From IMG/VR virus record IMGVR_UViG_3300045988_126851, positions 19,646 through 83,645 of that record: a stretch of 64,000 nt of DNA; one strand, 5' to 3'. Below are positions 2,479-44,210 of this stretch, piece after piece. The notes under the pieces were generated by a model. That model did not search any database. It had not been told where the DNA came from and saw only the letters and a list, made by a program, of their open reading frames with translations. Positions within the stretch are counted from its first letter, which is position 1; the number at the start of each line of letters is the position of its first letter. The position numbers and the translations under genes were made by a program. Source of the DNA: a virus.

Positions 2479-2584
2479 AATAAAAATACTTTTAGTTTTT
2501 ATGTTTATTTTATTATAACCTTTTCTCTATAAAACTAAAAGATTTTATAAGAAAAAGAGAAAAGGTTTTTGTTTCATTTCTGTA

Positions 2585-2661: not shown

Positions 2662-2853
2662 TCAACTCTCTAAATTAAATCCCGTTAAATCTGTAATATT
2701 CTCTACATTTTTGATTAGCTCAAAAACTTCGTCCAAAGTTACATTATTTTTCTTTAATAAATAAGATGTTAGTTTTTTTGCTGCACTCATTGAAGAAATA
2801 GCTTCAATAAGATAATACTTTTCATCTGTTGTAATAACTAAATACTTTTTCAT
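2662..2853 (-). CDS. hypothetical small protein
   Basis: The track ORF begins at a GTG (2877). The first ATG is at 2853 (MKKYLVITTDEKYY...), 28 nt downstream of the promoter motif. Confidence 0.45.
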   Translation of the reverse strand: MKKYLVITTDEKYYLIEAISSMSAAKKLTSYLLKKNNVTLDEVFELIKNVENITDLTGFNLES

Positions 2854-2877
2854 AACCCTATTATTTTTGTTTTTCAC

Positions 2878-2890
2878 TATGCAAATATAA
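2878..2890 (-). promoter_or_regulatory. Bacteroidota-type -7 promoter element
   Basis: Reverse complement reads TTATATTTGCATA. The ATG at 2853 lies 28 nt after the TTTG. Confidence 0.6.
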
Positions 2891-3329
2891 AAACTTTATT
2901 TAGATTACGCAAATATTTAGAGAAAAATTTTCAAGAAAATGAAGTTTTTAAAAATCAAAAATTTTAAAATTAAAATTTGCAAAAATCTAAAAATTGGAGA
3001 GGTTTTTAGATTGCACCCTAAAAAGTAGTTTAAAATTTGCACTTAAATTTGGGGGTACGTTCAAGCTTAAAATCACGCACGCTTTGTAGCTATATAGATT
3101 ACCTGTATGAATAGAGAGAGTATTGGTTATAGGTATAGAAGTATCCCATAGGCCATTAATGGTACCCAGTAGTAAATTTCTCTAAGGTCCTTCAAATTGC
3201 ATAGGAAGCCATTAAGGGAATATTCTAGAAGGCTTATAGGTATAGAGGTATTAGAGCCTAATTACCTAATCTAATATAAGGCCATAGATAGTGATTTTGA
3301 AAATAGGGTGTAAGGTAAGAACATAAAAA

Positions 3330-3357
3330 GGTCCAGTACCAAAGTTAGGTCTGGACC
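3330..3357 (-). terminator. rho-independent terminator after gene 3381..3761
   Basis: GGTCCAG (3330-3336) pairs with CTGGACC (3351-3357). On the minus strand the hairpin is followed by TTTTTATG. Confidence 0.65.
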
Positions 3358-3380
3358 AAAGTTAGGCTTAGTAGGATTAA

Positions 3381-3761
3381 TTAGCAAGTGAAAGGAACTG
3401 TTACCATGACCAATGTAGACCATATATGTATTAGGGGCATTTCTAGTGAAGCTTCGGGATCGAAAGGAAATACCTGATGTAATTGATTAGAGATTTCTAA
3501 AGATTCTTCTGGGGTAAGTGTATCGGGATCCTTAATGGTAAAGGACCATAGGTGAAAGCCTTGTTCCTCATGGTCGATAGTGTTAATGGATATTAGGGTT
3601 AACCGTTCTGGGATTTGGGTTTCCTGGATTTCAGAAAGGATAGGATAAATGTAATCCTTGATCCCCTGTTCGAAATGAGGATAGGAATCAGGTGCAGCAA
3701 TTAATGAAAGATTAATACTTTTTGCAAAATTAAATTCAGTGTTTAAAATACTTGTTCTCAT
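3381..3761 (-). CDS. hypothetical protein embedded in the repeat-rich non-coding region
   Basis: 126-aa ORF with its own promoter motif (3791-3802) and terminator (3330-3357). Confidence 0.6.
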   Translation of the reverse strand: MRTSILNTEFNFAKSINLSLIAAPDSYPHFEQGIKDYIYPILSEIQETQIPERLTLISINTIDHEEQGFHLWSFTIKDPDTLTPEESLEISNQLHQVFPFDPEASLEMPLIHIWSTLVMVTVPFTC

Positions 3762-3790
3762 AAGTCTATCTTTAATTAGTTATTATTACA

Positions 3791-3802
3791 ATGCAAATAT
3801 AA
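3791..3802 (-). promoter_or_regulatory. Bacteroidota-type -7 promoter element
   Basis: Reverse complement reads TATATTTGCAT. The ATG at 3761 lies 32 nt downstream. Confidence 0.6.
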
Positions 3803-4230
3803 ATATTAAATATTATATATGCAAATCCTCAATTGCTTTATAGGAGTACCTAAGGGCCTTGATTATATTTTTAAATCCTTGAGGCCATGAATGGAGTAAG
3901 GCCATAATCCTAATTTGCCTTATAACCTTTACCCTATATAAACCTATACCTAATAAGGCAATCAAGGTACCCCTAAATCACAAAATGTCCTAGAATTATT
4001 GCATTTATCAATAATATAAATACTAATGCAATAACTTACATAGTTACTAGGATAATTGCCTAATAATCCCCTATGATTACCTATAAAATCCTATTTCTAG
4101 GTACCTTGAAGGCAATTATAATCCCCAAGAGATCCTAATTTACCCCTGAATAAGAGAGATCAGTAAAAGGCAACATCCTACAAACAACCGTACACTGCCT
4201 TTTTAACACGTAGCCTATTTTATCAACTAT

Positions 4231-4244
4231 TATATATATATATA
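4231..4244. repeat. (TA)7 microsatellite
   Basis: tatatatatatata, read directly from the sequence. Confidence 0.9.
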
Positions 4245-4389
4245 CTAATATAAAAGGTAAATTAGGCAAATGGCAAATAGAAGGCCATTAATCGACTACT
4301 GTACTAAAGCTATAGTACACTCCTACAAACGTTTGTAGCTATATGACTATCTGTATTATAATTACCTTTTACCTTCACATGCCTTACCT

Positions 4390-4404
4390 TATATATATAT
4401 ATAT
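4390..4404. repeat. (TA)7 microsatellite
   Basis: tatatatatatatat, read directly. It lies ~160 bp from the first tract, near the point where motif orientation switches. Confidence 0.9.
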
Positions 4405-4572
4405 GTATATAATAAGCGGCCATTAATGGTACTGGGATTATGAGGATTTTATGGAGATTAGGGGCCTTTTTATTGCCTTTTTGTGATTACCTTAAAATGA
4501 GCCAAGTAGCTCTAGAGTATAGTAGCTATATAGTAATGTGGTATGTTTTGTATAGTAAGTAGGGGGATTGCC

Positions 4573-4605
4573 TTGAGGTACCTCAAATTTTCGAAACCCC
4601 CGGGG
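4573..4605. repeat. cluster of three adjacent perfect palindromes
   Basis: TTGAGGTACCTCAA (4573-4586), TTTCGAAA (4589-4596) and CCCCGGGG (4598-4605). Confidence 0.85.
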
Positions 4606-4782
4606 ATACCTTGTATATGTATCTTAGATATGTATTATATGATATGAGTATTAATAGTAATGATGATATATGGTAATAGGTATTAGTGTATTATATGAGG
4701 TATAGGATATGATTATATTGATTAGGTATATAGGTATTATGTATACCTTTAGTGTATAGGTTCTTTATTATTTCTCTTTTGT

Positions 4783-4906
4783 TTTTGTTTGGGGAGGGGG
4801 ATTGGTTATAGGTACCTTTGTATTAGGATCATTAAGGTGGTATATATTATTAGGATTAGGATTTGTGATATTAGGTACCTTATTTTGTTTGTTGGGGGGG
4901 ATTGGT
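4783..4906. repeat. two copies of TTTTGTTT-(G-run)-ATTGGT spaced exactly 100 bp apart
   Basis: 4783-4806 reads ttttgtttggggagggggattggt and 4883-4906 reads ttttgtttgttgggggggattggt. The flanking sequence is loosely similar between the two. Confidence 0.75.
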
Positions 4907-4975
4907 AGGTGTTCTCATTGTGTATGAGGATTAGGATGGTGATTAGGGATAGGATTACCTTTAGGTATGTGATAT

Positions 4976-5224
4976 TCATGGTAGTGGGATTATATCGATT
5001 ATGGTTATATCACTTAGATTTATTTGTAATATCCCTCTTAACCTTAGCCTTATGAATTCTGAGTGAAGGTGGTTGTTGTTTATTTCTTGGTGGGGGTAGC
5101 GAAAGTAAGGATTTAGTTCCTCAGTTCTGTATGGGATTACCATTTCCTCTGTGAAACCCTCTGTGTAGTCTTTAGTGTGACCTGGTACCTCGAAAGATAC
5201 CAGGAATTCCCCTTTTGTTAGCAT
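4976..5224 (-). CDS. hypothetical protein
   Basis: 82-aa ORF on the dominant strand. It overlaps the stop of the upstream gene by 7 nt. Confidence 0.5.
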   Translation of the reverse strand: MLTKGEFLVSFEVPGHTKDYTEGFTEEMVIPYRTEELNPYFRYPHQEINNNHLHSEFIRLRLRGILQINLSDITIIDIIPLP

Positions 5225-5601
5225 GGCTCTAGTTCATTAGTTAGTATTCGGATATCGGTATATTGATTCATGTATTCCTCTTCTGAAGATATGTCTAAGC
5301 ATTTACATGCTATGTAGTGACCGTACATCGATATACCCGATTTATAGCCCTGGTCTTCGTTTAGGAAGTAGGCTAATCCTTTCCTATTGATTTCGATTAC
5401 GGGGTAAGGAGGTTCTCCATTGGTTGCTTCCTTATCGAAGGTAGCAAAGTCATAAGTATCCGTATTATCAGTCATGGTAGCAAATATTTCTATTAGCCAG
5501 GTAAAATCCTCTAGAGGTACTTTATCTAGCCATTCCCATCCGATTGGGTAATCGTTTATGGTTATGGTTAAGTTACTGAGAATAGTTGAATTTAGTTTCA
5601 T
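5218..5601 (-). CDS. hypothetical protein
   Basis: 127-aa ORF at the start of the early-gene block. Confidence 0.6.
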   Translation of the reverse strand: MKLNSTILSNLTITINDYPIGWEWLDKVPLEDFTWLIEIFATMTDNTDTYDFATFDKEATNGEPPYPVIEINRKGLAYFLNEDQGYKSGISMYGHYIACKCLDISSEEEYMNQYTDIRILTNELEPC

Positions 5602-12717: not shown

Positions 12718-12771
12718 GAATAATATATTATTCTACAAAAGAAAAATAAATTTATTTTCTAAATTCTAAGG

Positions 12772-16717: not shown

Positions 16718-17200
16718 TTATTTTTTACCTTTCTTACCTTTACCCTTTGCTTCTTTCTTTGCAGGGAGTTTGAGGCCCAATTCTTTGGCAATTGCCTTAC
16801 GAAGCTTTTCAATTTCGTCTTCGTCGAAATCATCAGGATCAGTGTCAAGATCTTTGTCGTCGCAAACTTCTTCCAATTCTTCGAAGTCCATTTCAGCAAG
16901 AGCCTCACCGGTCAAATCTTCGTCTTCTTCCTCCTCTTCCTCTTCTTCGTCTTCTTCGTCTTCTTCCTCCTCTTCGTCTTCTTCCTCCTCTTCGTCTTCT
17001 TCGTCTTCTTCCTCTTCTTCGTCTTCTTCGTCTTCTTCCTCTTCCTCAGAACCGAAAAGGTCTTCTGCTTCCTCGGCAGTCAAGGCAATCGGAGCCGGAG
17101 TGATTTTGATTGAGCCATCTTCGTACTTGATAATAATTGTACCATTTACTTCTGTTCTAGAAACTTCTTTCAGTTCTACTTCTTTTTTCTTCTTAGCCAT
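16718..17200 (-). CDS. poly-Glu/Asp acidic protein
   Basis: 160-aa ORF. Residues 52-94 are exclusively E or D. The N-terminus (MAKKKKEVELKE) and C-terminus (KKEAKGKGKKGKK) are basic. Confidence 0.65.
   Translation of the reverse strand: MAKKKKEVELKEVSRTEVNGTIIIKYEDGSIKITPAPIALTAEEAEDLFGSEEEEEDEEDEEEEEDEEDEEEEEDEEEEEDEEDEEEEEEEEDEDLTGEALAEMDFEELEEVCDDKDLDTDPDDFDEDEIEKLRKAIAKELGLKLPAKKEAKGKGKKGKK
16919..17047. repeat. imperfect tandem GAAGA(N)-type repeat encoding the E/D run
   Basis: The plus strand is made of tcttcgtct and tcttcctcc 9-mer units repeated about 14 times. Confidence 0.85.
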
Positions 17201-19075: not shown

Positions 19076-20053
19076 TTATTTTTTATATAATAGCTGGGGA
19101 TTCACTCGTTCGGTACCAGTTGATTTGGGTTTTCGTGGTTTTCTGGTTTTATGAACATTATAGGCAACATCCATTACCTTTACGTTAAAGTCAATATTAT
19201 TTACCTGGTTATAATTAACTGCCTTTTGAACACAGTAACGATATTCTGGCCAAAACTTTTGCCCTAATTTCACATCTCCAGTTTTATCCATGAATTTAGA
19301 TACCATAAAACCAAAAGTATCCGCATCATCTTTTTCTTCAAATACATACATGTAAAATCTACTAAACTCTTTTACTACTTCCTCTAAAGGCCTTACTGGG
19401 AGTAAGAGATAACCATCCGTATATAATTCCTGAGATATTAAGCATACCCAGTATTTCTTCTTTCCAGGTTTTACTTTATATCGGAATCTTTCTTTTACTT
19501 TAGTGTGCATCCATTCTGGTACTCTATTTAAAAGGTATCTGATATAGATCTTATCCTTTTTATTCAATCTCCTTTTGAATGCAGATGGCTGTTGTAGCAT
19601 TCTTGGAAGAATACGAGAATTATTCCATCTATCATATTCAAAGATTAACTTAACAGTATCCTGATCCCAGGGGTCTTCTGATTCTCTTAACCTTTTCATA
19701 TTCCTCATTATATTATGAGCATTCACCTTGGGCAATATCTGAGCAGCATCACCAGAATATAAAGCCGCTTCTCTTCTCTTTAATCTCTTTTCTAGGCATC
19801 CCTCTATATAATCTTGAAAATTCCTTTCACATGGGCAATCTGGTCTGAATATAGAAGTCCTTTTCTCAAAAAAATCCGAGAAAAGCCTAAAGAACTTCTC
19901 AGACCTTTCTCGGATTTCAAGATACTTATAATGAGACAACTTTAAAATCTCACCCGCTTCCCAAGATGACTTATTTTCGGATAATTGAAGGAACAGAGAT
20001 TGTTGTTCTTTTTGGGTTAAACAGTCCCATGCTTTCTTTTGAAATTCATTCAT
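19076..20053 (-). CDS. hypothetical protein with possible N-terminal HTH (sigma region-4/LuxR-like)
   Basis: 325-aa ORF. LTQKEQQSLFLQLSENKSSWEAGEILKLSHYKYLEIRERS resembles an LT.rE..v..l...g.s..EIa..L.iS..tv helix-turn-helix. Confidence 0.45.
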   Translation of the reverse strand: MNEFQKKAWDCLTQKEQQSLFLQLSENKSSWEAGEILKLSHYKYLEIRERSEKFFRLFSDFFEKRTSIFRPDCPCERNFQDYIEGCLEKRLKRREAALYSGDAAQILPKVNAHNIMRNMKRLRESEDPWDQDTVKLIFEYDRWNNSRILPRMLQQPSAFKRRLNKKDKIYIRYLLNRVPEWMHTKVKERFRYKVKPGKKKYWVCLISQELYTDGYLLLPVRPLEEVVKEFSRFYMYVFEEKDDADTFGFMVSKFMDKTGDVKLGQKFWPEYRYCVQKAVNYNQVNNIDFNVKVMDVAYNVHKTRKPRKPKSTGTERVNPQLLYKK

Positions 20054-29942: not shown

Positions 29943-30432
29943 AACGTTTTCTTTTCTTAATATATTTATATACTAACATTGGTGATATCCCATACTTCCT
30001 AGCAAGTTTTGCTTTTATCATACCAGTATCATACTCATAAAGTAATTGAAGTATATCGGGTCTACTTAACTTTGTATCTGAAAATTTAAACCTACCATCT
30101 CTAATACATTGTTGAGTATTTTCCTTAGCAGTACCCCAATATAAGTTCTTATAATGATTATGAGTTCTTATATTATCCTTATGACATACATACTTATGAT
30201 TATTTGGGTTTGGTACATATACTAATGCTACTAATTGATGAATGTTATAAGTATACCTATATCCATTCGTATCCCTAATAGAAACTATAACGTATCCGTT
30301 ATTTTTAATTCGATTAAGGGATAATTTTACCCAACCTTTACCCTTATAATTAGAATATACCTTACCATTCTTGGTAACATGGTAATTAGGGCAACCAATG
30401 CAATCTAAGTTTCCCTTTAAAATCTTCCTCAT
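29902..30432 (-). mobile_element. free-standing HNH homing endonuclease gene, copy 2
   Basis: HQLVALVYVPNPNNHKYVCHKDNIRTHNHYKNLYWGTAKEN plus a C-terminal HTH. It is flanked by 21-nt near-identical direct repeats (29923-29943 and 30413-30433). Confidence 0.85.
29923..29943. repeat. direct repeat flanking the HNH gene (downstream copy)
   Basis: ccgtttaaaatcttcttcata matches ccctttaaaatcttcctcata at 30413-30433 at 19 of 21 positions. Confidence 0.9.
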
Positions 30433-33400
30433 ACTGCTTTATCTCTTTACTAAACAATTTAGGATAATCCTTAATGATTACATTCTTATACTTCTTATGT
30501 TCTTCCATATACTCCTCTACTGAGAAATCTGGTTGAAGCATCTTTCTATAATCATACCCAGGAATAAAAGGTAATTCTTCTGCCATTGACCTACCAATAG
30601 AGAAGTCCATTGACATATCTACATCATCCACTTGAAAACCAAAATATTTCTTAGTACTGGGGTTTCTCAATATATCCCATATTTTAAAAACAGTCCAAGT
30701 ATTAATATATTCAGGCTTTGAGTAAAAATAGGCTGCATCATGAACAGTTGCTACTTCAAGCATACGTGGTAATTTACCTTGCCTCATTAACCAATAAACG
30801 AGAATAGCTCCGAAGTTGGTCATATTTGCTGCAGCACCCTGGCAATTACCAGTGATTAAAGTTCTATATCGTTTATCTTCACCAATTACCCTTGTAAAGA
30901 AAGCCCCAGATTTTACAGTAGGACACCATACTTTACCTACATACTTCTCTTTCGTTAAATTATTCTCTAAATTGTAAGTATTCTTGGTGTTTACTGATTT
31001 CCTAAAATTAGAGAATTTTACTCCATAACTAGTTTTAGTGGCCCGTACAAACTCTTGACCATATTTACTTGGTTTCTTATCTTTAAAATGAGATATGTCA
31101 CCTTCATGTGATAATTCATACATACTTGAGGTGTTGTTACAAAGTACTACCAAAGCCTGAAGTAATTCTCCTTGAGTTTTATCTCCGGTTGCCCATACCG
31201 ACCAACCATCCCCTAACCTCATATTCTCTAATAAGATACTTAATTGAGGGTTAGTTAATCGAGTTAATAACTTCATATTTAACTTACGTTCAGGAACTAA
31301 CCTATTAAGTTTATAAACAAATCCTGGGTCTCTTATTTCCCATATCACTTGATTCTTTTCTCTACGGGAGAATTCTACATCTAATTCTTCCATGATAGAA
31401 TCAATGGTATCTACCTTGTGGGGATTTGCAGTATTACTCTGACATATTCTTACTATGTTACCATTCTTCAGATGACCATCAGTAAGATACCAACCTAAAA
31501 AAGCTACATAAGCATCCGAATATCTAGCTTTCACTTGATTGTTATGAGGAGCTCTTATTGGGATAGCATAAGGTTTATCTGAATTGTATAATTCTTCAGA
31601 AGTTAATACTTCGGTATTATCTAATTTAGATATTTTATTTGGTTTAGTAACTACCCATCTATGGTCTGGAGTTGATAATACGTCTAGATGTTTTGTCTTT
31701 AACCGAATCATATCTCCATCATAATCAAATACATTTACCCTTTCAACCTTTTGCCATTCTGATTCTCCTATGTCCCGATTAAAAGCTAATATCTCATCAC
31801 CAACCTTTAAATCTTCATAATTTACCCATCCCTTAGTTTTACTAAGAGCCTGAGATGAGGGTAATAAGCAAGGAAAATTAAGACCTAAACGAATTGCATA
31901 AGCAACTTCTTGCTTATCATTTGAATATATTTGTGGGAGTCTTCGCTTAGTACCAAATAACTGTGTATAATACCCATGCTTACGCAGGAATTTCTCTTGT
32001 TTCTCTTTGAACTTAAGTATTTTAGGATGTTTCTTAAAGAACTCATCCATCTCTTTACGAGCTTCCTCCTTGGTAACTATAATACCAGCTTTTGGGTCTG
32101 ATAATTTTACTGCTAGCAAAGCATCTCCAATCCCATAAATAAGGCCAAATGCAATTTGCTTTGCTTGCTTTCTCCTTACCTTCCAAATCTTATGGTCAGG
32201 ATGACTTTCGTCTTCGTATATTTTACTTGCTTCCTCAATTGGAACCCCATATTTTGCTGCTGCTATACCAAGGTGAGGGTCTACTCCCTTAGCAAATGCT
32301 TCTAGATAGGTTTCATCCCCAGATAGATGAGCCATCATTCTTAACTCTGCCTGTGAGTAGTCGAATGCCATATATAGATAACCTGGAGGAGCAACCAATT
32401 GTTTCTTAATATTTGGGTCTACTGATGTCTTGGGTATTTGCTGCATATTTGGGTCAGCAGAACTAAAACGATTAGAGTCCGTACCATGTATATTATACCT
32501 ACCATGTAATCGGGAATCATCTTGTACCTTTTCCCACCATCCATAAATATAGGTCTTATACATTTTCTCTAACCCTCGTAATTCAAGAAGTTTATCAAGA
32601 AATATGGCCTTTGGTGAATCTGGCTTTTTAATGGTTAGCCTAAGATTAGTAAGGGTTTCTTCATCTGTACTTGGTTTACCAGATTCATTCTCTTTAATTA
32701 CATCGAAATGAAAACCATCCTCTGAATACATCAATGCAGGTAAATCAACTGGACTACCCAAATTAATGGGTCTTATTAATTCTTGTTCCTTTTTAGTTGT
32801 GAATATACCTGCTTTGATATTTGAGATTTTCTGTTCCCTTGATGCAATCTTTCGTTTGTCTTTTGGGTCATTATAATCTAACTCCTCAAGTTCAGCTTCT
32901 ATAAATTGGATATACTTGTCAATCTTTTCTTGGTTATACTTCTTTTCGAATTTCTTTACTCTGGGTAAGTCATATATTGCTTGTCTAGCAGCATCTATTT
33001 TTGGTTTATACTCTTCCAAAAGCTTTTTATTGAACTCAGTATCTAGATATAATCCCTCTTTCTCTACTGAAGTAAGTACTCGTGAATTACACATAAATAA
33101 ATTACGGAATACCGAATACATACCCAAGTCAATCAACTTCTTTTCAAAGAATATCATTAACCTAAGAGTATAATCCGTATCTTGACACCCATAATGGCAA
33201 AGTGGATCTAATTCTTTTTCATCCCAAGGTATTTTATCAAAGGCATCTTGTTTTTCATAATTACCATACTCAGGTAAATACCTTCTTACCATTGACTTTA
33301 GGTCATGAGGTTTTTCTTCATTGAGAACATATTTTGCAAGCATACCATCTAAACATGTACCCCTATAAAATATTTGATACTTTTGGTTTATCTGGTCATC

Positions 33401-33709
33401 AAACTTCCAGTTCCATGCAACCTTTACAATATCATAATTCTCAATTACCTCTTCCCCAAATTTCCTTAGCATCTTTTTCCAATTCCAACCTGGTGAAGTA
33501 TAATCTTTTGTTTCGAAATGGTCTAAAGGAATGGAAGCACCAAACCCTGGCATCCAGGATACTGAGAGTATAGTTGGCTTAAAATCCCTATTATATAGGG
33601 GTTTTGCATTCGATTCGTAGTCACAGCAAGCATAACCTGTAGCTTTACAACAAGCAATAAGTTTCTTAAGCTCTCTCTTATTTTTTATTATTGTATACCG
33701 TGTCTCCAT
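30386..33709 (-). CDS. polA: family-A DNA polymerase with 3'-5' exonuclease domain, interrupted by an intein
   Basis: Exo motifs are CDYESN, NWKFDDQ and YGCQDTDY. Pol motif A is AFDYSQAELRMMAH, motif B is RRKQAKQIAFGLIYG and motif C is TVHDAAY. The conserved N.P.QG.AA segment is split as NFP / intein / CQGAAAN. Confidence 0.95.
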   Translation of the reverse strand: METRYTIIKNKRELKKLIACCKATGYACCDYESNAKPLYNRDFKPTILSVSWMPGFGASIPLDHFETKDYTSPGWNWKKMLRKFGEEVIENYDIVKVAWNWKFDDQINQKYQIFYRGTCLDGMLAKYVLNEEKPHDLKSMVRRYLPEYGNYEKQDAFDKIPWDEKELDPLCHYGCQDTDYTLRLMIFFEKKLIDLGMYSVFRNLFMCNSRVLTSVEKEGLYLDTEFNKKLLEEYKPKIDAARQAIYDLPRVKKFEKKYNQEKIDKYIQFIEAELEELDYNDPKDKRKIASREQKISNIKAGIFTTKKEQELIRPINLGSPVDLPALMYSEDGFHFDVIKENESGKPSTDEETLTNLRLTIKKPDSPKAIFLDKLLELRGLEKMYKTYIYGWWEKVQDDSRLHGRYNIHGTDSNRFSSADPNMQQIPKTSVDPNIKKQLVAPPGYLYMAFDYSQAELRMMAHLSGDETYLEAFAKGVDPHLGIAAAKYGVPIEEASKIYEDESHPDHKIWKVRRKQAKQIAFGLIYGIGDALLAVKLSDPKAGIIVTKEEARKEMDEFFKKHPKILKFKEKQEKFLRKHGYYTQLFGTKRRLPQIYSNDKQEVAYAIRLGLNFPCLLPSSQALSKTKGWVNYEDLKVGDEILAFNRDIGESEWQKVERVNVFDYDGDMIRLKTKHLDVLSTPDHRWVVTKPNKISKLDNTEVLTSEELYNSDKPYAIPIRAPHNNQVKARYSDAYVAFLGWYLTDGHLKNGNIVRICQSNTANPHKVDTIDSIMEELDVEFSRREKNQVIWEIRDPGFVYKLNRLVPERKLNMKLLTRLTNPQLSILLENMRLGDGWSVWATGDKTQGELLQALVVLCNNTSSMYELSHEGDISHFKDKKPSKYGQEFVRATKTSYGVKFSNFRKSVNTKNTYNLENNLTKEKYVGKVWCPTVKSGAFFTRVIGEDKRYRTLITGNCQGAAANMTNFGAILVYWLMRQGKLPRMLEVATVHDAAYFYSKPEYINTWTVFKIWDILRNPSTKKYFGFQVDDVDMSMDFSIGRSMAEELPFIPGYDYRKMLQPDFSVEEYMEEHKKYKNVIIKDYPKLFSKEIKQYEEDFKGKLRLHWLP
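30413..30433. repeat. direct repeat flanking the HNH gene (upstream copy)
   Basis: See 29923-29943. This copy contains the HNH start codon and the YEEDFK codons of the polymerase. Confidence 0.9.
30845..31870 (-). mobile_element. intein (342 aa) with LAGLIDADG homing-endonuclease domain inside polA
   Basis: Starts CLLPSSQ... (aa 614). Block B is STPDHRW. The LAGLIDADG motifs are FLGWYLTDGH and LLENMRLGDGW. It ends ...RTLITGN (aa 955) followed by the +1 Cys of CQGAAAN. It is in frame with the host ORF. Confidence 0.85.
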
Positions 33710-33764: not shown

Positions 33765-34502
33765 TTAGTATTTCTCTTGTAAGTCTTCCAAATTAGAAGC
33801 TAATGCTGTCCAATCTTTCTTATAAGCATGAAGAGAATCAATAGTGTGATACAAGTAGCCAGGTTTTACTCCCACCTCTTTAGCTACATATTTCATTAAT
33901 CTCCATGCAAGGTATACGTCGTTACCGAAATGAATTATAAAATCTGAGCTTCTTTGGTGATAGCAAATGTGTAATACCTTCTCTCCCTTACTATTCTCTC
34001 GGATAAGGAAATCATAGTACATAGAGCAGGGTATACGTTTATTACCATGGTAATAAAGAGTATCATCTTCACCATTACCATTAAATATAGGTAATACCGC
34101 TTTACGAGTATCAGAATCTGATCTTAGTAATTGTATGGTATATGGAAGAATTGCCATCCTTTCGTTATAGGTATAATCAAATTTACCATCTACCAAAAAC
34201 TGTTCCCATAAGTCTTTTCTTAATTCCCAAGCTTTGCCCGGGTTAATTACCTTAGAAGTATTAATCCTTTCTTGGAACTCAGCATCTGCCCACTCCTTTG
34301 AATGAGAGAATACGAATAACCATACTGGGTCTCCAAGTGAAGTTAAGCAATATTGTTGGCAAATGAGTTCTTTTGTAATAAAATCCTCATTACCTTCAAT
34401 CCTCTTATTCTGATAGGTCTTTGGTTTTACAGTTTGACCATAACTGTTGAGTTCTCTGCCCATTTCAGACATTAACTCAAACGAATTACTGTATATCCGC
34501 AT
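33765..34502 (-). CDS. thymidylate-synthase-family pyrimidine (hydroxy)methyltransferase
   Basis: TRKAVLPIFN, the catalytic-Cys segment RIPCSMYYDF, and LHICYHQRSSDFIIHFGNDVYLAWRLMKYVAKEVGVKPGYLYHTIDSLHAY all parallel ThyA motifs (sRR.i.s.WN, PCH..fQF, lyQRS.D..lG.PFNi.sY.lL, G...h..Gd.HiY). It is clearly divergent from canonical ThyA. Confidence 0.75.
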   Translation of the reverse strand: MRIYSNSFELMSEMGRELNSYGQTVKPKTYQNKRIEGNEDFITKELICQQYCLTSLGDPVWLFVFSHSKEWADAEFQERINTSKVINPGKAWELRKDLWEQFLVDGKFDYTYNERMAILPYTIQLLRSDSDTRKAVLPIFNGNGEDDTLYYHGNKRIPCSMYYDFLIRENSKGEKVLHICYHQRSSDFIIHFGNDVYLAWRLMKYVAKEVGVKPGYLYHTIDSLHAYKKDWTALASNLEDLQEKY

Positions 34503-35415
34503 TTTTCTTTTGTTTTAATAAAAGTTTCTTTTTATAGGCTTTACGTTGAGAGTAAGATATTACATTCTCGGGATATTCTATATCTTCATATTCAAGAAGT
34601 AATTCTTTTGCTTTCATTGATTTATATGTTTCCTCATATAAATCTGGTCGAAGCACTTTAAAACTTCTAAAGAATACCTTGAATGAAGAGAATTCTTTCT
34701 CTGTACCTTTTTGGAATTTTTTCCATATCTCTTTTATCCTCTTATTCCAAGAATTCTCTTCAGCCCCTTTAAGTACCTTCTTTAAAGGTTTATGAGTATG
34801 ATACATTAGGAGTGTCTCAACGTTTCCATACATTTGAGTTGCGAATAGGTTGATTTGTACTGACTGATCCGGTCCGTATACGTATTCTGACATACGCTGG
34901 ATTAAGAGGAAATCGAAGATTAGTCTCTTCGTAATCTCGGAAGCTCGTATTACCATAGTTATTACCGGTATATCTTCCCCAAACCGTTTTGAGAATGTAG
35001 CAGCTATCAGACATTGTTTGCCATTATCATGATGATTGTTAAATATATAGGTTATATTGTAATTCTGATTGTACTTGTTTTTCAGTACTCTCAGCTTACT
35101 ACGCAATAAGTCAAGCTTATTAAAATCTATGTAATTATTCAATAAGCTAGTCCACTTAGTTTCTTTGTAATTGAAACATCTACCATAATCAAATTCTGGG
35201 TCTACCCAGGCTTTTCGTATTTTTATAAATACATTATACACTACTGCTACTCCACTGTTAGCCATAGCCCCTTTTTCAAATAAAGCAGGATCTAATCTTA
35301 GGAATCCCTCATTGAGTTTTTCCCATGCCTCTTGTGAAGTAGCAAATTCTAACGAATGGAGGGACTCCTCCGGATTAAGCTGAAGTCCCTCTAGCTTACG
35401 GTTCCAACCTGACAT
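34486..35415 (-). CDS. second, highly divergent TS-fold-like protein (tentative)
   Basis: The ATG at 35415 follows the upstream stop (35417). GKQCLIAATF...VITMVIRASEITKRLIFDFLLIQRMSEYVYG...INLFATQMYGN has the same element order as the TS core (Cys, then strand, then RS.D-like, then helix, then G...h..Y.N). Confidence 0.45.
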   Translation of the reverse strand: MSGWNRKLEGLQLNPEESLHSLEFATSQEAWEKLNEGFLRLDPALFEKGAMANSGVAVVYNVFIKIRKAWVDPEFDYGRCFNYKETKWTSLLNNYIDFNKLDLLRSKLRVLKNKYNQNYNITYIFNNHHDNGKQCLIAATFSKRFGEDIPVITMVIRASEITKRLIFDFLLIQRMSEYVYGPDQSVQINLFATQMYGNVETLLMYHTHKPLKKVLKGAEENSWNKRIKEIWKKFQKGTEKEFSSFKVFFRSFKVLRPDLYEETYKSMKAKELLLEYEDIEYPENVISYSQRKAYKKKLLLKQKKNADIQ

Positions 35416-35416
35416 G

Positions 35417-36256
35417 CTAATAGTTTGATTTTTGACGCCATAAATTAAGGCGTTGTTTTTTAAAGAATAAACTAAATAATCCGTAAGGAGTAAACCCATT
35501 CATAGCCAAGAATCCCATATAGAGATAGAATGACTTTACCAAAGATTCCTGAAAGTCGATTTCTTTAGTCATCACTTGAGTTTGTTTCCAAGGTCTACAC
35601 TTAAGGAAATTCCTTGCTTTATTTAGTTCATAGATCACTTCCCATAAATATAACTTCTCGTTTTCATGAGATATTTCGCTCATTTCATGAAAACCGGGAG
35701 TATATGAAACTACTTTGTCCCATTCTGATCTATCTATATCCATAGGAGTTATTATAGGATATTTCCTTACACTTCGATGATCGGGATACTTGATAAGTAG
35801 TTCTTTAACCCCAATTGCCATTACCTCAAATAAACTCTTTGCATCTTTATATTTTAATATATCTTCGGGCAATATATTAGAATACAGAAGCAAAGTAAAG
35901 AAGAATCCCAAAGCATCTGCTTGTTCTTCATTTGCATTTGCTAGATGATTTAATACCTGAGTATATTCTTCTGGGGTTAAGCAATCATTATTCCATCCAT
36001 AATCACGATATATAGATACTACTTCATCGGTAGATTCGAATCCTTCGGTTAATTCCTCGATAACCCTACCAATAAAATCCTTTAGGATAACTTGGCTCTT
36101 TGGGTGATTTATATCTAAAGGATAATCAGGTAACCTTTCTATCTCTTTATACCCAAAGAATTGTTCTACCCCAAGATCATACATTTCTTGTAGTATCTGT
36201 GCCTCAGTTTCTTCTACCTGAGGCACTTGTTCATTTATATTCCTTATGTCCACCAT
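35417..36256 (-). CDS. MazG-like all-alpha NTP pyrophosphohydrolase (tentative)
   Basis: IGRVIEELTEGFES and ANEEQADALGFFFTLL resemble the paired E..E / EE..D metal-binding helices of MazG and dCTPase-type enzymes. Confidence 0.5.
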   Translation of the reverse strand: MVDIRNINEQVPQVEETEAQILQEMYDLGVEQFFGYKEIERLPDYPLDINHPKSQVILKDFIGRVIEELTEGFESTDEVVSIYRDYGWNNDCLTPEEYTQVLNHLANANEEQADALGFFFTLLLYSNILPEDILKYKDAKSLFEVMAIGVKELLIKYPDHRSVRKYPIITPMDIDRSEWDKVVSYTPGFHEMSEISHENEKLYLWEVIYELNKARNFLKCRPWKQTQVMTKEIDFQESLVKSFYLYMGFLAMNGFTPYGLFSLFFKKQRLNLWRQKSNY

Positions 36257-36807
36257 TCTATGTTTTGAGATGAACCAAATCCTTTATCTCCTCTACTTCC
36301 CCACATTTGAGATTCTGAATAGAATTCTTCTTCCAGAATTTCTTCGGGTTCCGTAATATAGACTGGTACATGAATAAACTGTACTAGCTTTTGACCAGCC
36401 TCTATAATCTGGGGTTCTTGAGAAGCATTGTATACTCCGATATGTATTTCTCCAACATAGGGAGAATCTACTATCTCAGCAGTAAAGATTAATCCTTTCT
36501 TAGTAGCTATACCAGATTTGTTTGCTGCCATTAACATAGATGCAGGAGGTTCTAGTAATACCTTGATACCTGATGAGATGAGTATCCTATGCCCCGGTTG
36601 TAAAGCTATATGCCTTACAAAGACTTCACCAAAAGGAACATCTAAATCATAACCTTCGGAGTCGAATTCATTTTTAGAATGAATATCCTCTGAAGTTAGG
36701 TTGGTTGGTACATAAAAATCTAACCCAGCATCATTTGGGTTTGCTCTGTTGGGAGATACTACCTCCCTTACTTTGATAAATCTAAATCTGTTCATAATAT
36801 ATTGCAT
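36244..36807 (-). CDS. dut: trimeric dUTPase
   Basis: All five dUTPase motifs are present in order: DAGLDFY, NKSGIATKKG, EIVDSPYVGEI, GQKLVQF and SRGDKGFGSS. An alternative ATG at 36795 forms an ATGA overlap with the upstream stop. Confidence 0.85.
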   Translation of the reverse strand: MQYIMNRFRFIKVREVVSPNRANPNDAGLDFYVPTNLTSEDIHSKNEFDSEGYDLDVPFGEVFVRHIALQPGHRILISSGIKVLLEPPASMLMAANKSGIATKKGLIFTAEIVDSPYVGEIHIGVYNASQEPQIIEAGQKLVQFIHVPVYITEPEEILEEEFYSESQMWGSRGDKGFGSSQNIEWWT

Positions 36808-43556: not shown

Positions 43557-44210
43557 ATGAGAAGTAGAGGTAACAATGGATCGGAATTGCATAGGTTGAA
43601 AACCATGCAAGAGAATTATGATCAACAGATGTTTCTAAGGTTATATAAGGTGTGCAAGCCAGTAATTAGAAATCTCACTAAGCAAATTGATTACAAAAGA
43701 TATAATCTTACTCCAGATATTATATCTTCTTATTTCTGGGATAAGATGTTATATGTATTCAATAAATACTATGGTACTTGTTCGGAAGAACATTTAAAAG
43801 CAAGAATCCTTGCTTCACTCAGTACATTTAAGAATAAATTACTCCGTTCTGCCTATGGAGAACAAGCAGAATATAATCAATCCTTATTTAAGTTAGATGA
43901 TTTATTCGATAATGATAAAGAGTTAGAAGATGACAGTGAAGAAGAGAAAGCTAAATCTGAAATGCTTGAGATGATGTATTCATATATGAAAGATCATTTA
44001 TCTATTGATGCTTACATGGTATTCGAGGTATTACTTACTCCTCCTCCATATATTAAAGAAAGGATTAAAGATAGTGGAAGGATTACTAACTTATTATTGG
44101 TAGAATTCTTTGATATGCCTAAAACTAACTCTTCAGTTAAATACATATCGGAATTAAGATCAGATATTCAATATTGGGAAGACAGAGCTAAAGAAGAACT
44201 TAAGTATTAA
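43557..44210 (+). CDS. possible sigma-factor-like or transcription regulator; lone plus-strand gene
   Basis: 217-aa ORF. The N-terminal half has a weak sigma region-2-like pattern (LTPDIISSYFWDKMLYVFNKY...). It sits at the replication/structural boundary and is transcribed divergently. Confidence 0.35.
   Translation: MRSRGNNGSELHRLKTMQENYDQQMFLRLYKVCKPVIRNLTKQIDYKRYNLTPDIISSYFWDKMLYVFNKYYGTCSEEHLKARILASLSTFKNKLLRSAYGEQAEYNQSLFKLDDLFDNDKELEDDSEEEKAKSEMLEMMYSYMKDHLSIDAYMVFEVLLTPPPYIKERIKDSGRITNLLLVEFFDMPKTNSSVKYISELRSDIQYWEDRAKEELKY

Follow-up and report, generated by a model that had tools for sequence, protein, structure and literature searches.

A conserved cis-acting control region in the early-gene block of Flandersviridae/Gubaphage genomes, a candidate replication origin and early-transcription boundary

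Several phage origins of replication, among them oriλ, the primary origin of T7, and oriF and oriG of T4, combine a promoter or protein-binding sites with an AT-rich unwinding element. In genomes of the T7, T5, and SPO1 types, the ends lie upstream of strongly promoted early genes, and arrays of short words adjoin the terminal repeats of T7; the Ackermannviridae package by headful. Promoters of the primary sigma factor in Bacteroides follow the consensus TTTG-N19-21-TAnnTTTG. Here, we describe a region at positions 3762-4975 of a stretch of phage DNA of 64,000 nucleotides (nt), referred to as the window (positions 19,646 to 83,645 of IMG/VR record IMGVR_UViG_3300045988_126851). The window belongs to an ~85-kb contractile-tailed phage of Bacteroidota in the Flandersviridae/Gubaphage group, which is among the most prevalent phage groups of the human gut. 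The region is genuine and conserved and constitutes a control region, not described before, within the early-gene block of this phage.

In layout, the region appears closest to the λ, T7, and T4 origins in which sites adjoin an AT element, joined here to a putative Rho-type terminator and an early promoter region. Like these origins, it sets easily melted AT-only elements beside repeated motifs that resemble protein-binding sites, lies in the early block of a phage with a DnaB/primase/PolA module, and is entered by transcription from one side. Unlike them, it lacks tandem phased iterons and a host-consensus promoter directly upstream of the AT elements, and an initiator was not found; it is also ~10 times larger and shares no sequence similarity with them. 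We do not file it as an iteron origin because both tandem iterons and DnaA boxes are lacking. One part of the region resembles Rho-dependent terminators such as λ tR1 in presenting >150 nt of untranslated, C-rich, G-poor RNA past a stop codon, with no predicted hairpin. Unlike in these terminators, the G depletion sets in within the last gene itself, where it influences codon choice, and termination is a prediction. A likeness of layout only links the region to the T7 concatemer junction and the T5 first-step-transfer repeats, in which ~1 kb of noncoding DNA rich in words and palindromes precedes strong early genes; the evenly spread contig ends and the circular or dimeric assemblies described below set it apart from these, and there is no sequence similarity. 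The Bacteroides promoter consensus is matched exactly at four clear sites in the window, all on the minus strand (12739-12709, 3825-3794, 2913-2882, and 2618-2588), but the promoter accounts for just 32 nt of the region, and the motif upstream of it (motif A, see below) has no described counterpart.

The IMG/VR relatives of this phage fall into three clades with genomes of 84 to 88 kb (83 to 88 kb for the relatives overall), and a second genus has genomes of ~78 kb and a marker protein ~44% identical to that of the window. In nearly every relative examined, a gap of 400 to 900 nt without an open reading frame (ORF) occupies the same place. Read in the direction of transcription, its skew begins at about −0.5 to −0.8 and climbs to between +0.2 and +0.4; most of these gaps terminate in a consensus TTTG-N-TAnnTTTG promoter. 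The second genus has a matching gap of 0.7 to 1.4 kb with the skew flip, two boxes (CAGGGGGT and ACTATAC), two AT palindromes, and the promoter. The composition flip, the AT-only palindromes, and the repeated motif are retained in clades and genera that can no longer be aligned with one another. Among 20 genomes that are 91 to 97% identical overall, nucleotide diversity is 0.006 to 0.09 over 3900-5300 versus 0.13 to 0.27 in the flanking genes. Because the region is more conserved than the neighboring genes, we conclude that it is under selection and is a cis-acting control region of several parts rather than filler. Neither a tRNA nor an Rfam element was matched in the region (Rfam even at E ≤ 5), and words of the GG/CC, AA/TT, or AGG type show no significant helical periodicity of 10 to 11 bp, a sign of curvature or wrapping. 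A comparison of 2800-5400 with 50,697 phage records gave zero megablast or blastn matches, and the Flandersviridae/Gubaphage papers examined contain nothing on the region.

Only two stretches of more than 400 nt in the window lack an ORF of at least 60 amino acids (aa), namely 3762-4975 and 2878-3380. An initial annotation, made from the sequence alone, had called the first of these ORF free; this holds at the 60-aa threshold, but the region hides a conserved gene of 57 aa on the minus strand (4979→4806). Stop codon recoding was ruled out as the source of the ORF-free stretch, all three stops being present in all six frames. The strand asymmetry that the same annotation described is borne out: the GC skew of the plus strand moves from −0.46 at 3901-4100 to +0.68 at 4601-5000, the six most positive 500-nt windows of the 64 kb all begin within 4401-4651, and the 500-nt interval that begins at 3901 ranks fourth among the most negative ones. 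Short words are enriched as reported, with 13 occurrences of ATTAGG/CCTAAT and 36 of TAGG/CCTA in the region (0.8 and 7.7, respectively, expected from the rest of the window), and both the (TA)7 tracts (Table 1) and six GGTACC sites (3161, 3966, 4100, 4577, 4811, and 4874) lie where they had been placed. What did not hold is the proposal that binding-site-like words stand in mirrored arrays around the TA tracts, with one half the exact complement of the other. The 6-mer likeness between the left half and the reverse complement of the right half is weak (0.384, versus 0.331 ± 0.033 in dinucleotide shuffles); the only clearly repeated site, motif A (GGCCATTAATGG), occurs five times in direct rather than mirrored orientation; and the right-hand array is a by-product of the small gene and of the G-depleted untranslated stretch that follows it. 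The flip in orientation marks the place where a stop half that avoids G meets a start half that is rich in it, rather than a mirrored array of one binding site.

The ATG of the small gene overlaps the stop codon of an 82-aa gene (ATGA), and its product comprises two hydrophobic helices linked by a loop, …YQSPPTNKIRY… (PTNK). The ORF is intact in 20 of 20 near relatives, one of which carries a 12-nt in-frame insertion, and it is open in >60 distinct sequences from three clades at 35 to 95% aa identity, with the PTNK loop and the hydrophobic arms kept (tblastn). In an alignment of six sequences, all indels inside the ORF are multiples of three. On these sequence features, we take 4979→4806 to be a real protein-coding gene, one that gene callers missed in nearly all of the relatives' loci examined. 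Variable sites among near-identical genomes are distributed 10/9/10 over the three codon positions, with no third-position excess, and so purifying selection on the protein at short range is not supported. Codon choice in the gene is pushed toward C and away from G and T: CTA makes up 9 of its 11 Leu codons versus 13% in long genes, ATT is never used for Ile versus 40% in long genes, and the Leu-Ile runs are spelled CTAATCCTAATC. It is these C-rich, G-poor Leu and Ile codons that give rise to the words CCTAAT, TAATCC, and ATCCTA, seen on the plus strand as ATTAGG and GGATTA. Across 15 representatives, the right-half words are present in the 12 from gene-bearing clades and missing in the 3 from the second genus, which lacks the gene. 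Striking strand-mirrored words can come from the codon choice of a tiny hydrophobic gene and not from arrays of binding sites.

The depletion of G continues past the stop codon, and the most G-poor 150-nt windows of the transcribed strand in the entire 64 kb all fall within 4990-4601 (2 to 5% G, 20 to 34% C). A decayed second copy of the small gene sits in the untranslated stretch 4805→4610; at the corresponding position, the relative L058 carries an intact 48-aa second paralogue of the two-helix gene (~16930-17080). A motif in which a C run precedes an A run (CCCCC…AACAAA) is found twice in every clade, for example, in L036, in L059, and in L108 of the gene-less genus. In the window, the sister of the copy listed in Table 1 lies inside the small gene at 4883-4906 and encodes the PPTNK loop. 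A relaxed scan for hairpins followed by T runs gave nothing on the minus strand from 4975 to 4133, and no intrinsic terminator was identified as far as 3826; the same scan detected strong minus-strand terminators for the next two genes, at 3374-3322 and 2689-2637. Two features of Rho-dependent terminators are present here, namely a C-rich and G-poor untranslated RNA past a stop codon, longer than the 80 nt required, and the lack of an intrinsic terminator. Judged by its composition, 4805→4610 resembles a Rho loading site and is a candidate for the element that ends early transcripts.

Beyond this stretch, the core of the region begins with two boxes that each have a single exact match in the window (Table 1). 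Box 1 (CCGGGGGT) and the ACTATAC sequence are invariant in an alignment of 19 representatives, and 80 distinct sequences, from 88 loci, carry box 1 with ACTATA no more than 110 nt away; CAGGGGGT is the counterpart of box 1 in the second genus. The spacer between the boxes is hypervariable in sequence and nearly fixed in length, with 38 to 42 nt (mostly 39 to 40) across 51 distinct versions. These versions represent at least 10 unrelated sequence types, several of them within one clade whose neighboring sequence is otherwise conserved, and unrelated types occur even among genomes with >95% identical flanks. A hairpin or cruciform in the box-spacer-box segment was rejected, G5/C5 pairing being found in some variants only, and the folding of 19 spacer variants did not differ from that of shuffled sequences (most z-scores within ±2, with no consistent signal). 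Within the distant clade, spacer type goes together with the allele carried by the first downstream early gene (identity difference of 0.24 to 0.29), an association inseparable from linkage. The 126-aa protein encoded by this gene has no detectable family in Pfam or PHROGs. We also scanned 596 Gb of bacterial genomes for integrated or plasmid-like copies with the pattern CCGGGGGTN{28,52}ACTATACAA; the pattern lacked specificity for a search space of this size, and the five matches inspected were due to chance and involved unrelated genes.

The hypervariable cassette of fixed length and the G-free membrane protein gene are two oddities of the region. It is conceivable, if rather unlikely, that the 39- to 40-nt cassette determines specificity and is subject to diversifying selection (it could, for instance, be what an initiator, packaging, or exclusion protein peculiar to each lineage recognizes) or that the small gene has been shaped by, or overprinted on, a nucleic acid signal. 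The idea about the small gene arises because the genus that lacks it still shows both the C-run/A-run motif and a composition free of G. Either would, if true, represent an unusual mutual constraint between a cis element and a gene in a very common gut phage.

Downstream of the boxes, the core continues with a AGCTATCT-like word, AAAGGCAATCAC, and TAAATCC, followed by motif A (CCATTAATGGCC) and then by an AT-only, mostly palindromic element. The five direct copies of the 12-nt motif A start at 3151, 3207, 3883, 4283, and 4418, spaced 56 to 676 bp apart; the first two lie in the next intergenic gap. Among close relatives, no other 100 nt of the neighborhood is as conserved as 4400-4499 (diversity of 0.006), and BLAST matches to more distant clades are confined, within the gap, to 4389-4439. 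A count of motif A over 2.7 Mb of related loci gave 163 copies on the transcription strand and 0 on the other, most of this bias being due to a small number of inherited sites. Of 115 contexts of the motif, 41 have GGATT and 46 an AT run directly after it, and in the distant clade, it lies 8 nt upstream of a −33 element, GGATTTGCAT.

The two TA tracts correspond to the 20-bp duplexes of lowest stability in the 64 kb (4232-4251 and 4391-4410). AT-only runs of 14 nt or more are present in listed loci of three clades and the second genus; in these loci, the first such run lies 188 to 199 nt past box 1 and the second, where present, near 350 to 378 nt from it; several near relatives have no run of this length, a C interrupting it. 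The AT elements of relatives differ in sequence and stay palindromic (ATATGTATTATATAATACATAT in L059, CTATTATATAATAG in L056, and TATATTATATAATATA in L108), with one to three AT-only palindromes per core. Between the TA tracts, a second copy of the core module contains motif B (GTAGCTATA, 4335-4343), CTACAAACGTTTGTAG (4323-4338), motif A (4283-4294), and GGCCATTAATCG. L027 and L049 have this module, whereas L056, L058, and L059 do not, the number of copies being one or two according to lineage. Scored as a sigma-70-like promoter, module 2 reaches 10/12 at 4276-4247. The sequence CTACAAACGTTTGTAG is a perfect 16-bp palindrome only in this genome; close relatives carry CTACAAACGTATGTAG (CGTATG). 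Two other AT-rich sites of the window were considered as alternative origins and dropped as undistinctive: the one near 40.8 kb lies directly downstream of the primase gene and has no distinctive features, and the one near 43.5 kb is an ordinary promoter spacer.

From 4228 to 3826, the minus strand is a G-rich, word-rich run-up to the promoter at 3825-3794. ATTAGG, GGATT(A/T), AGGCAAT, GGTACC, and ATGGCC (minus strand) are more frequent there than dinucleotide content predicts, as seen in 10 representatives that cover all clades, with z-scores that are inflated by shared ancestry. The conserved block at 3957-4094 includes a run of ~60 nt that is almost invariant; a structured RNA was rejected for this block, whose consensus fold reaches only −6.5 kcal/mol, incurs a covariation penalty, and includes a single compensatory pair. 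The motif A variant closest to the promoter (GGCCATGAATGG) is followed on the minus strand by a decayed promoter-like sequence, GGATTTAAAAATATAAT. The promoter itself is of the strong Bacteroides type and is predicted to drive the 126-aa early gene (3761→3381). Three further matches to the promoter pattern fall in the G-rich stretch or inside genes.

These features can be assembled into a single picture, to which we assign a probability of about 0.38. The early gene array ends with the two-helix gene. Transcripts leaving it would enter ~200 nt of C-rich, nearly G-free untranslated RNA, on which the host Rho factor would load and end them. Proteins would then assemble on the boxes and on motif A and open the AT palindromes, and the core (4603→4228), shielded from incoming transcription by the G-depleted stop zone, would serve as the origin of replication. 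Past the core, the promoter at 3825-3794 would restart early transcription, possibly with the involvement of the words in the G-rich half. Initiation of replication is the most likely single role of the core, although we hold this tentatively and at less than even odds. We favor it because the core is single copy, is constrained in its geometry, contains the most meltable DNA of the window with its symmetry kept, and varies in module number, and because it lies behind a transcription stop zone and has the skew polarity of origins (minus and then plus along the plus strand). The TA tracts also provide the adjacent AT-rich unwinding element expected of an origin. The region would thereby offer a candidate origin and early-transcription boundary for a ubiquitous, uncultured phage group. 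As the clearest conserved cis-acting landmark in Flandersviridae/Gubaphage genomes, it provides coordinates for testing origin function and early-transcription stop, for building Bacteroides replicons or reporters, and for adding the uncalled 57-aa gene to annotations.

Several results weigh against an origin. The initial annotation had likened the region to an iteron-type origin, and of this, the AT-rich melting elements and the selected, cis-acting nature of the DNA stand; tandem iterons, DnaA boxes, and an initiator were not found. Specifically, the region contains no tandem phased iterons (at least three repeats of ~17 to 22 bp), and motif A, with its wide spacing, places two of its five copies in the next gap, upstream of another early promoter. 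There is no DnaA box (TTATCCACA) with ≤1 mismatch in 2878-4975, and the count for the window is that expected by chance. Pfam searches with 10 replication-module proteins and 10 early or flanking proteins revealed no Rep-, O-, or DnaA-like initiator domain, and PHROGs searches with 10 flanking proteins returned nothing; most of the small early proteins have no detectable family. The cumulative GC skew, proposed as a check on the origin, turns at ~9 kb of the window and not at 4.4 kb, a result confounded by one-directional transcription. Promoter spacers are nearly as unstable as the TA tracts, so AT-rich DNA is not specific to origins in this phage, and motif A looks promoter linked, being always oriented with transcription and often followed by a −33-like GGATT. 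Termination by Rho, in turn, is suggested by nucleotide composition only.

A rival explanation is a purely transcriptional control region with no role in replication, which we consider doubtful in itself and yet nearly as good an account as an origin. Under this explanation, the G-depleted stretch would end the early operon, the modules of motif A and AT tract would be alternative or decayed promoters, and the boxes, motifs A and B, and the G-rich words would bind the host RNA polymerase or a phage regulator that switches early promoters. Motifs A and B indeed occur in both intergenic gaps, each time upstream of a consensus early promoter. The 163:0 strand bias of motif A, the GGATT, reminiscent of the −33 region, that follows it in 41 of the 115 contexts, its position 8 nt from a −33 element in the distant clade, the sigma-70-like score of module 2, and the duplication and decay of a promoter upstream of 3825 are all consistent with such a role. 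The strand bias, however, comes mostly from a few inherited sites, and the TA modules lack the TAnnTTTG that is present in every confident promoter of the phage. Single-copy boxes, a fixed spacer of 39 to 40 bp, and retained AT palindromy are also atypical of promoters, and a strong promoter already stands directly upstream of the 126-aa gene.

A packaging or genome-end region, with the boxes as terminase sites (pac, or a T7-like concatemer junction with short terminal repeats), seems improbable. It would account for a site that is unique and combines two invariant boxes a fixed distance apart, directly upstream of monocistronic early genes with strong host-type promoters, and the word arrays of T7 offer an analogy. 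Yet the contig ends of 40 incomplete relatives, a poor proxy for virion ends, are evenly spread with no cluster here, and assemblies close as circles or dimers; the terminase gene of relatives lies ~9 kb beyond the 126-aa gene, and the region is inside the early block rather than at its edge, with an early-type promoter also upstream at 12739. The family paper on the Flandersviridae, moreover, reports even read coverage and a TerL that groups with that of the Ackermannviridae. We give still less credence to the possibility that the core or the 3957-4094 block represents one or more noncoding RNA genes. High conservation without an ORF would fit, and the leader at 2500-2565 (see below) shows that the phage has conserved RNA elements, but the Rfam, spacer-folding, and consensus-fold results given above are all unfavorable, and neither element is bracketed by a promoter and a terminator. 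Least probable of all, and very improbable in our view, is nonfunctional debris in which relics of duplicated small genes and promoters have left a skewed composition. The decayed small-gene copy in 4805-4610, the decayed promoter near 3860-3880, and the variable module number are what such debris would leave; against it, the region is more conserved than the neighboring genes, different genera share the invariant boxes, the fixed spacings, and the skew flip, and no deletion of 3826-4805 occurs among hundreds of genomes.

Table 1. Features of the control region and of the adjacent intergenic gap (window coordinates)
Feature	Position	Strand	Basis or remark
Small gene, 57 aa	4979→4806	minus	ORF listing; intact in relatives
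C-run plus A-run motif, CCCCCTCCCCAAACAAAAACAAAA	4783..4806	minus	Direct repeat D11
G-depleted untranslated stretch	4805→4610	minus	Composition: 3.6% G, 23% C, 46% A
Box 1, CCGGGGGT	4603-4596	minus	Single exact match in window
Hypervariable spacer between boxes 1 and 2	4557..4595	minus	38-42 nt in relatives
Box 2, ACTATACAA	4556-4548	minus	Single exact match in window
Motif A, GGCCATTAATGG	4418..4429	plus	Adjoins TA tract 1; motif scan
TA tract 1, AT-only palindromic	4390..4403/4		(TA)7; 199 nt downstream of box 1
Second core-module copy	4245..4389	minus	Repeats D3, D8, D12; word positions
TA tract 2, AT-only	4231..4244		(TA)7; 359 nt from box 1
Conserved block, …TTAGGCAATTATCCTAGTAACTATGTAAGTTATTGCATTAGTATTTATATTA…	3957..4094	minus	70-80% identity to intermediate clade
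Motif A variant, GGCCATGAATGG	3883..3894	plus	Motif scan; ~60 nt upstream of promoter −33 element
Promoter, TTTG-N20-TATATTTG	3825-3794	minus	Pattern scan; conserved in relatives
Intrinsic terminator of 126-aa gene, GGTCCAG…CTGGACC + TTTTT	3322..3374	minus	−15.6 kcal/mol
Second intergenic gap	2914..3340	minus	Motif A 3151-3162, 3207-3218; motif B 3086-3094

The assignment of the window to the Flandersviridae/Gubaphage group follows from its gene content. The window encodes a family A DNA polymerase with a 3′-5′ exonuclease (PolA), a DnaB-like helicase, an SF2 helicase, a Toprim primase, an SbcC-like ATPase, a tail sheath, baseplate J, a tape-measure-like protein, thymidylate-synthase-like and dUTPase enzymes, and BACON domain proteins, and from 4976 to 64000, the minus strand carries nearly all genes. 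The published description of the Flandersviridae, also named Gubaphages, gives a median genome of 85.2 kb, a sheath, BACON domains, Bacteroides or Parabacteroides hosts, and DnaB/DnaG/PolA followed by ~20 kb of ORFs of unknown function. We assign the phage to this group because PolA, DnaB, sheath, baseplate J, BACON domains, and relatives of 83 to 88 kb match this description; membership was judged from size, gene content, and Bacteroides-type promoters. By exact-protein look-ups, hundreds of human gut assemblies hold the same phage, at 82 to 85 kb or as dimers of ~170 kb. In the Flandersviridae/Gubaphage literature, we found no cultured isolate and no account of the origin, genome ends, or early regulation.

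The closest deposited relative, MT121964.1, is syntenic over 9.7 to 64 kb of the window, yet it was dropped as a comparator since it has no equivalent of the region, which is found in other members of its genus. This record ends in a copy of its own promoter and gene start (75413-75500 versus 74066-74150, or 35413-35500 versus 34066-34150 in L002) and is probably incomplete or collapsed at a repeat.

The second intergenic gap ends in the promoter at 2913-2882. Upstream of this gap, the first early gene (3381-3761, 126 to 128 aa) is replaced in some near-identical genomes by unrelated genes of 90 and 85 aa, as in L014 (11847-12401) and L021 (3371-3925). Further downstream, the 5′ leader at 2500-2565 (minus strand), between the promoter at 2618-2588 and a 138-aa gene (2062-2478), is 94 to 97% identical across clades in which a nearby 299-aa protein is only ~74% identical. 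This leader contains a perfect 12-bp stem (AACCTTTTCTCT…AGAGAAAAGGTT) and an upstream ORF of 10 codons and may be a regulatory RNA leader.

Elsewhere in the window, the gene at 43557-44210 is the sole plus-strand gene inside the long minus-strand block; it diverges from the gene for the DnaB-like helicase, and a very AT-rich spacer of 167 nt holds a TAnnTTTG promoter of its own. The DNA polymerase gene (30386-33709, minus strand) encodes 1107 aa, of which no more than residues 293-613 align with the Pfam polymerase domain (positions 13-300 of the 381 in the model), and relatives match it in two to three pieces, which suggests an insertion or intein. The large terminase of relatives bears intein and HNH domains; the observations on these two proteins concern 30386-33709 of the window and L003 from 19365 onward. 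Finally, genes for thymidylate-synthase-like, dUTPase, and dCTP-deaminase-like proteins cluster at 33765-36807 (minus strand), a hint of a modified pyrimidine in the phage DNA.

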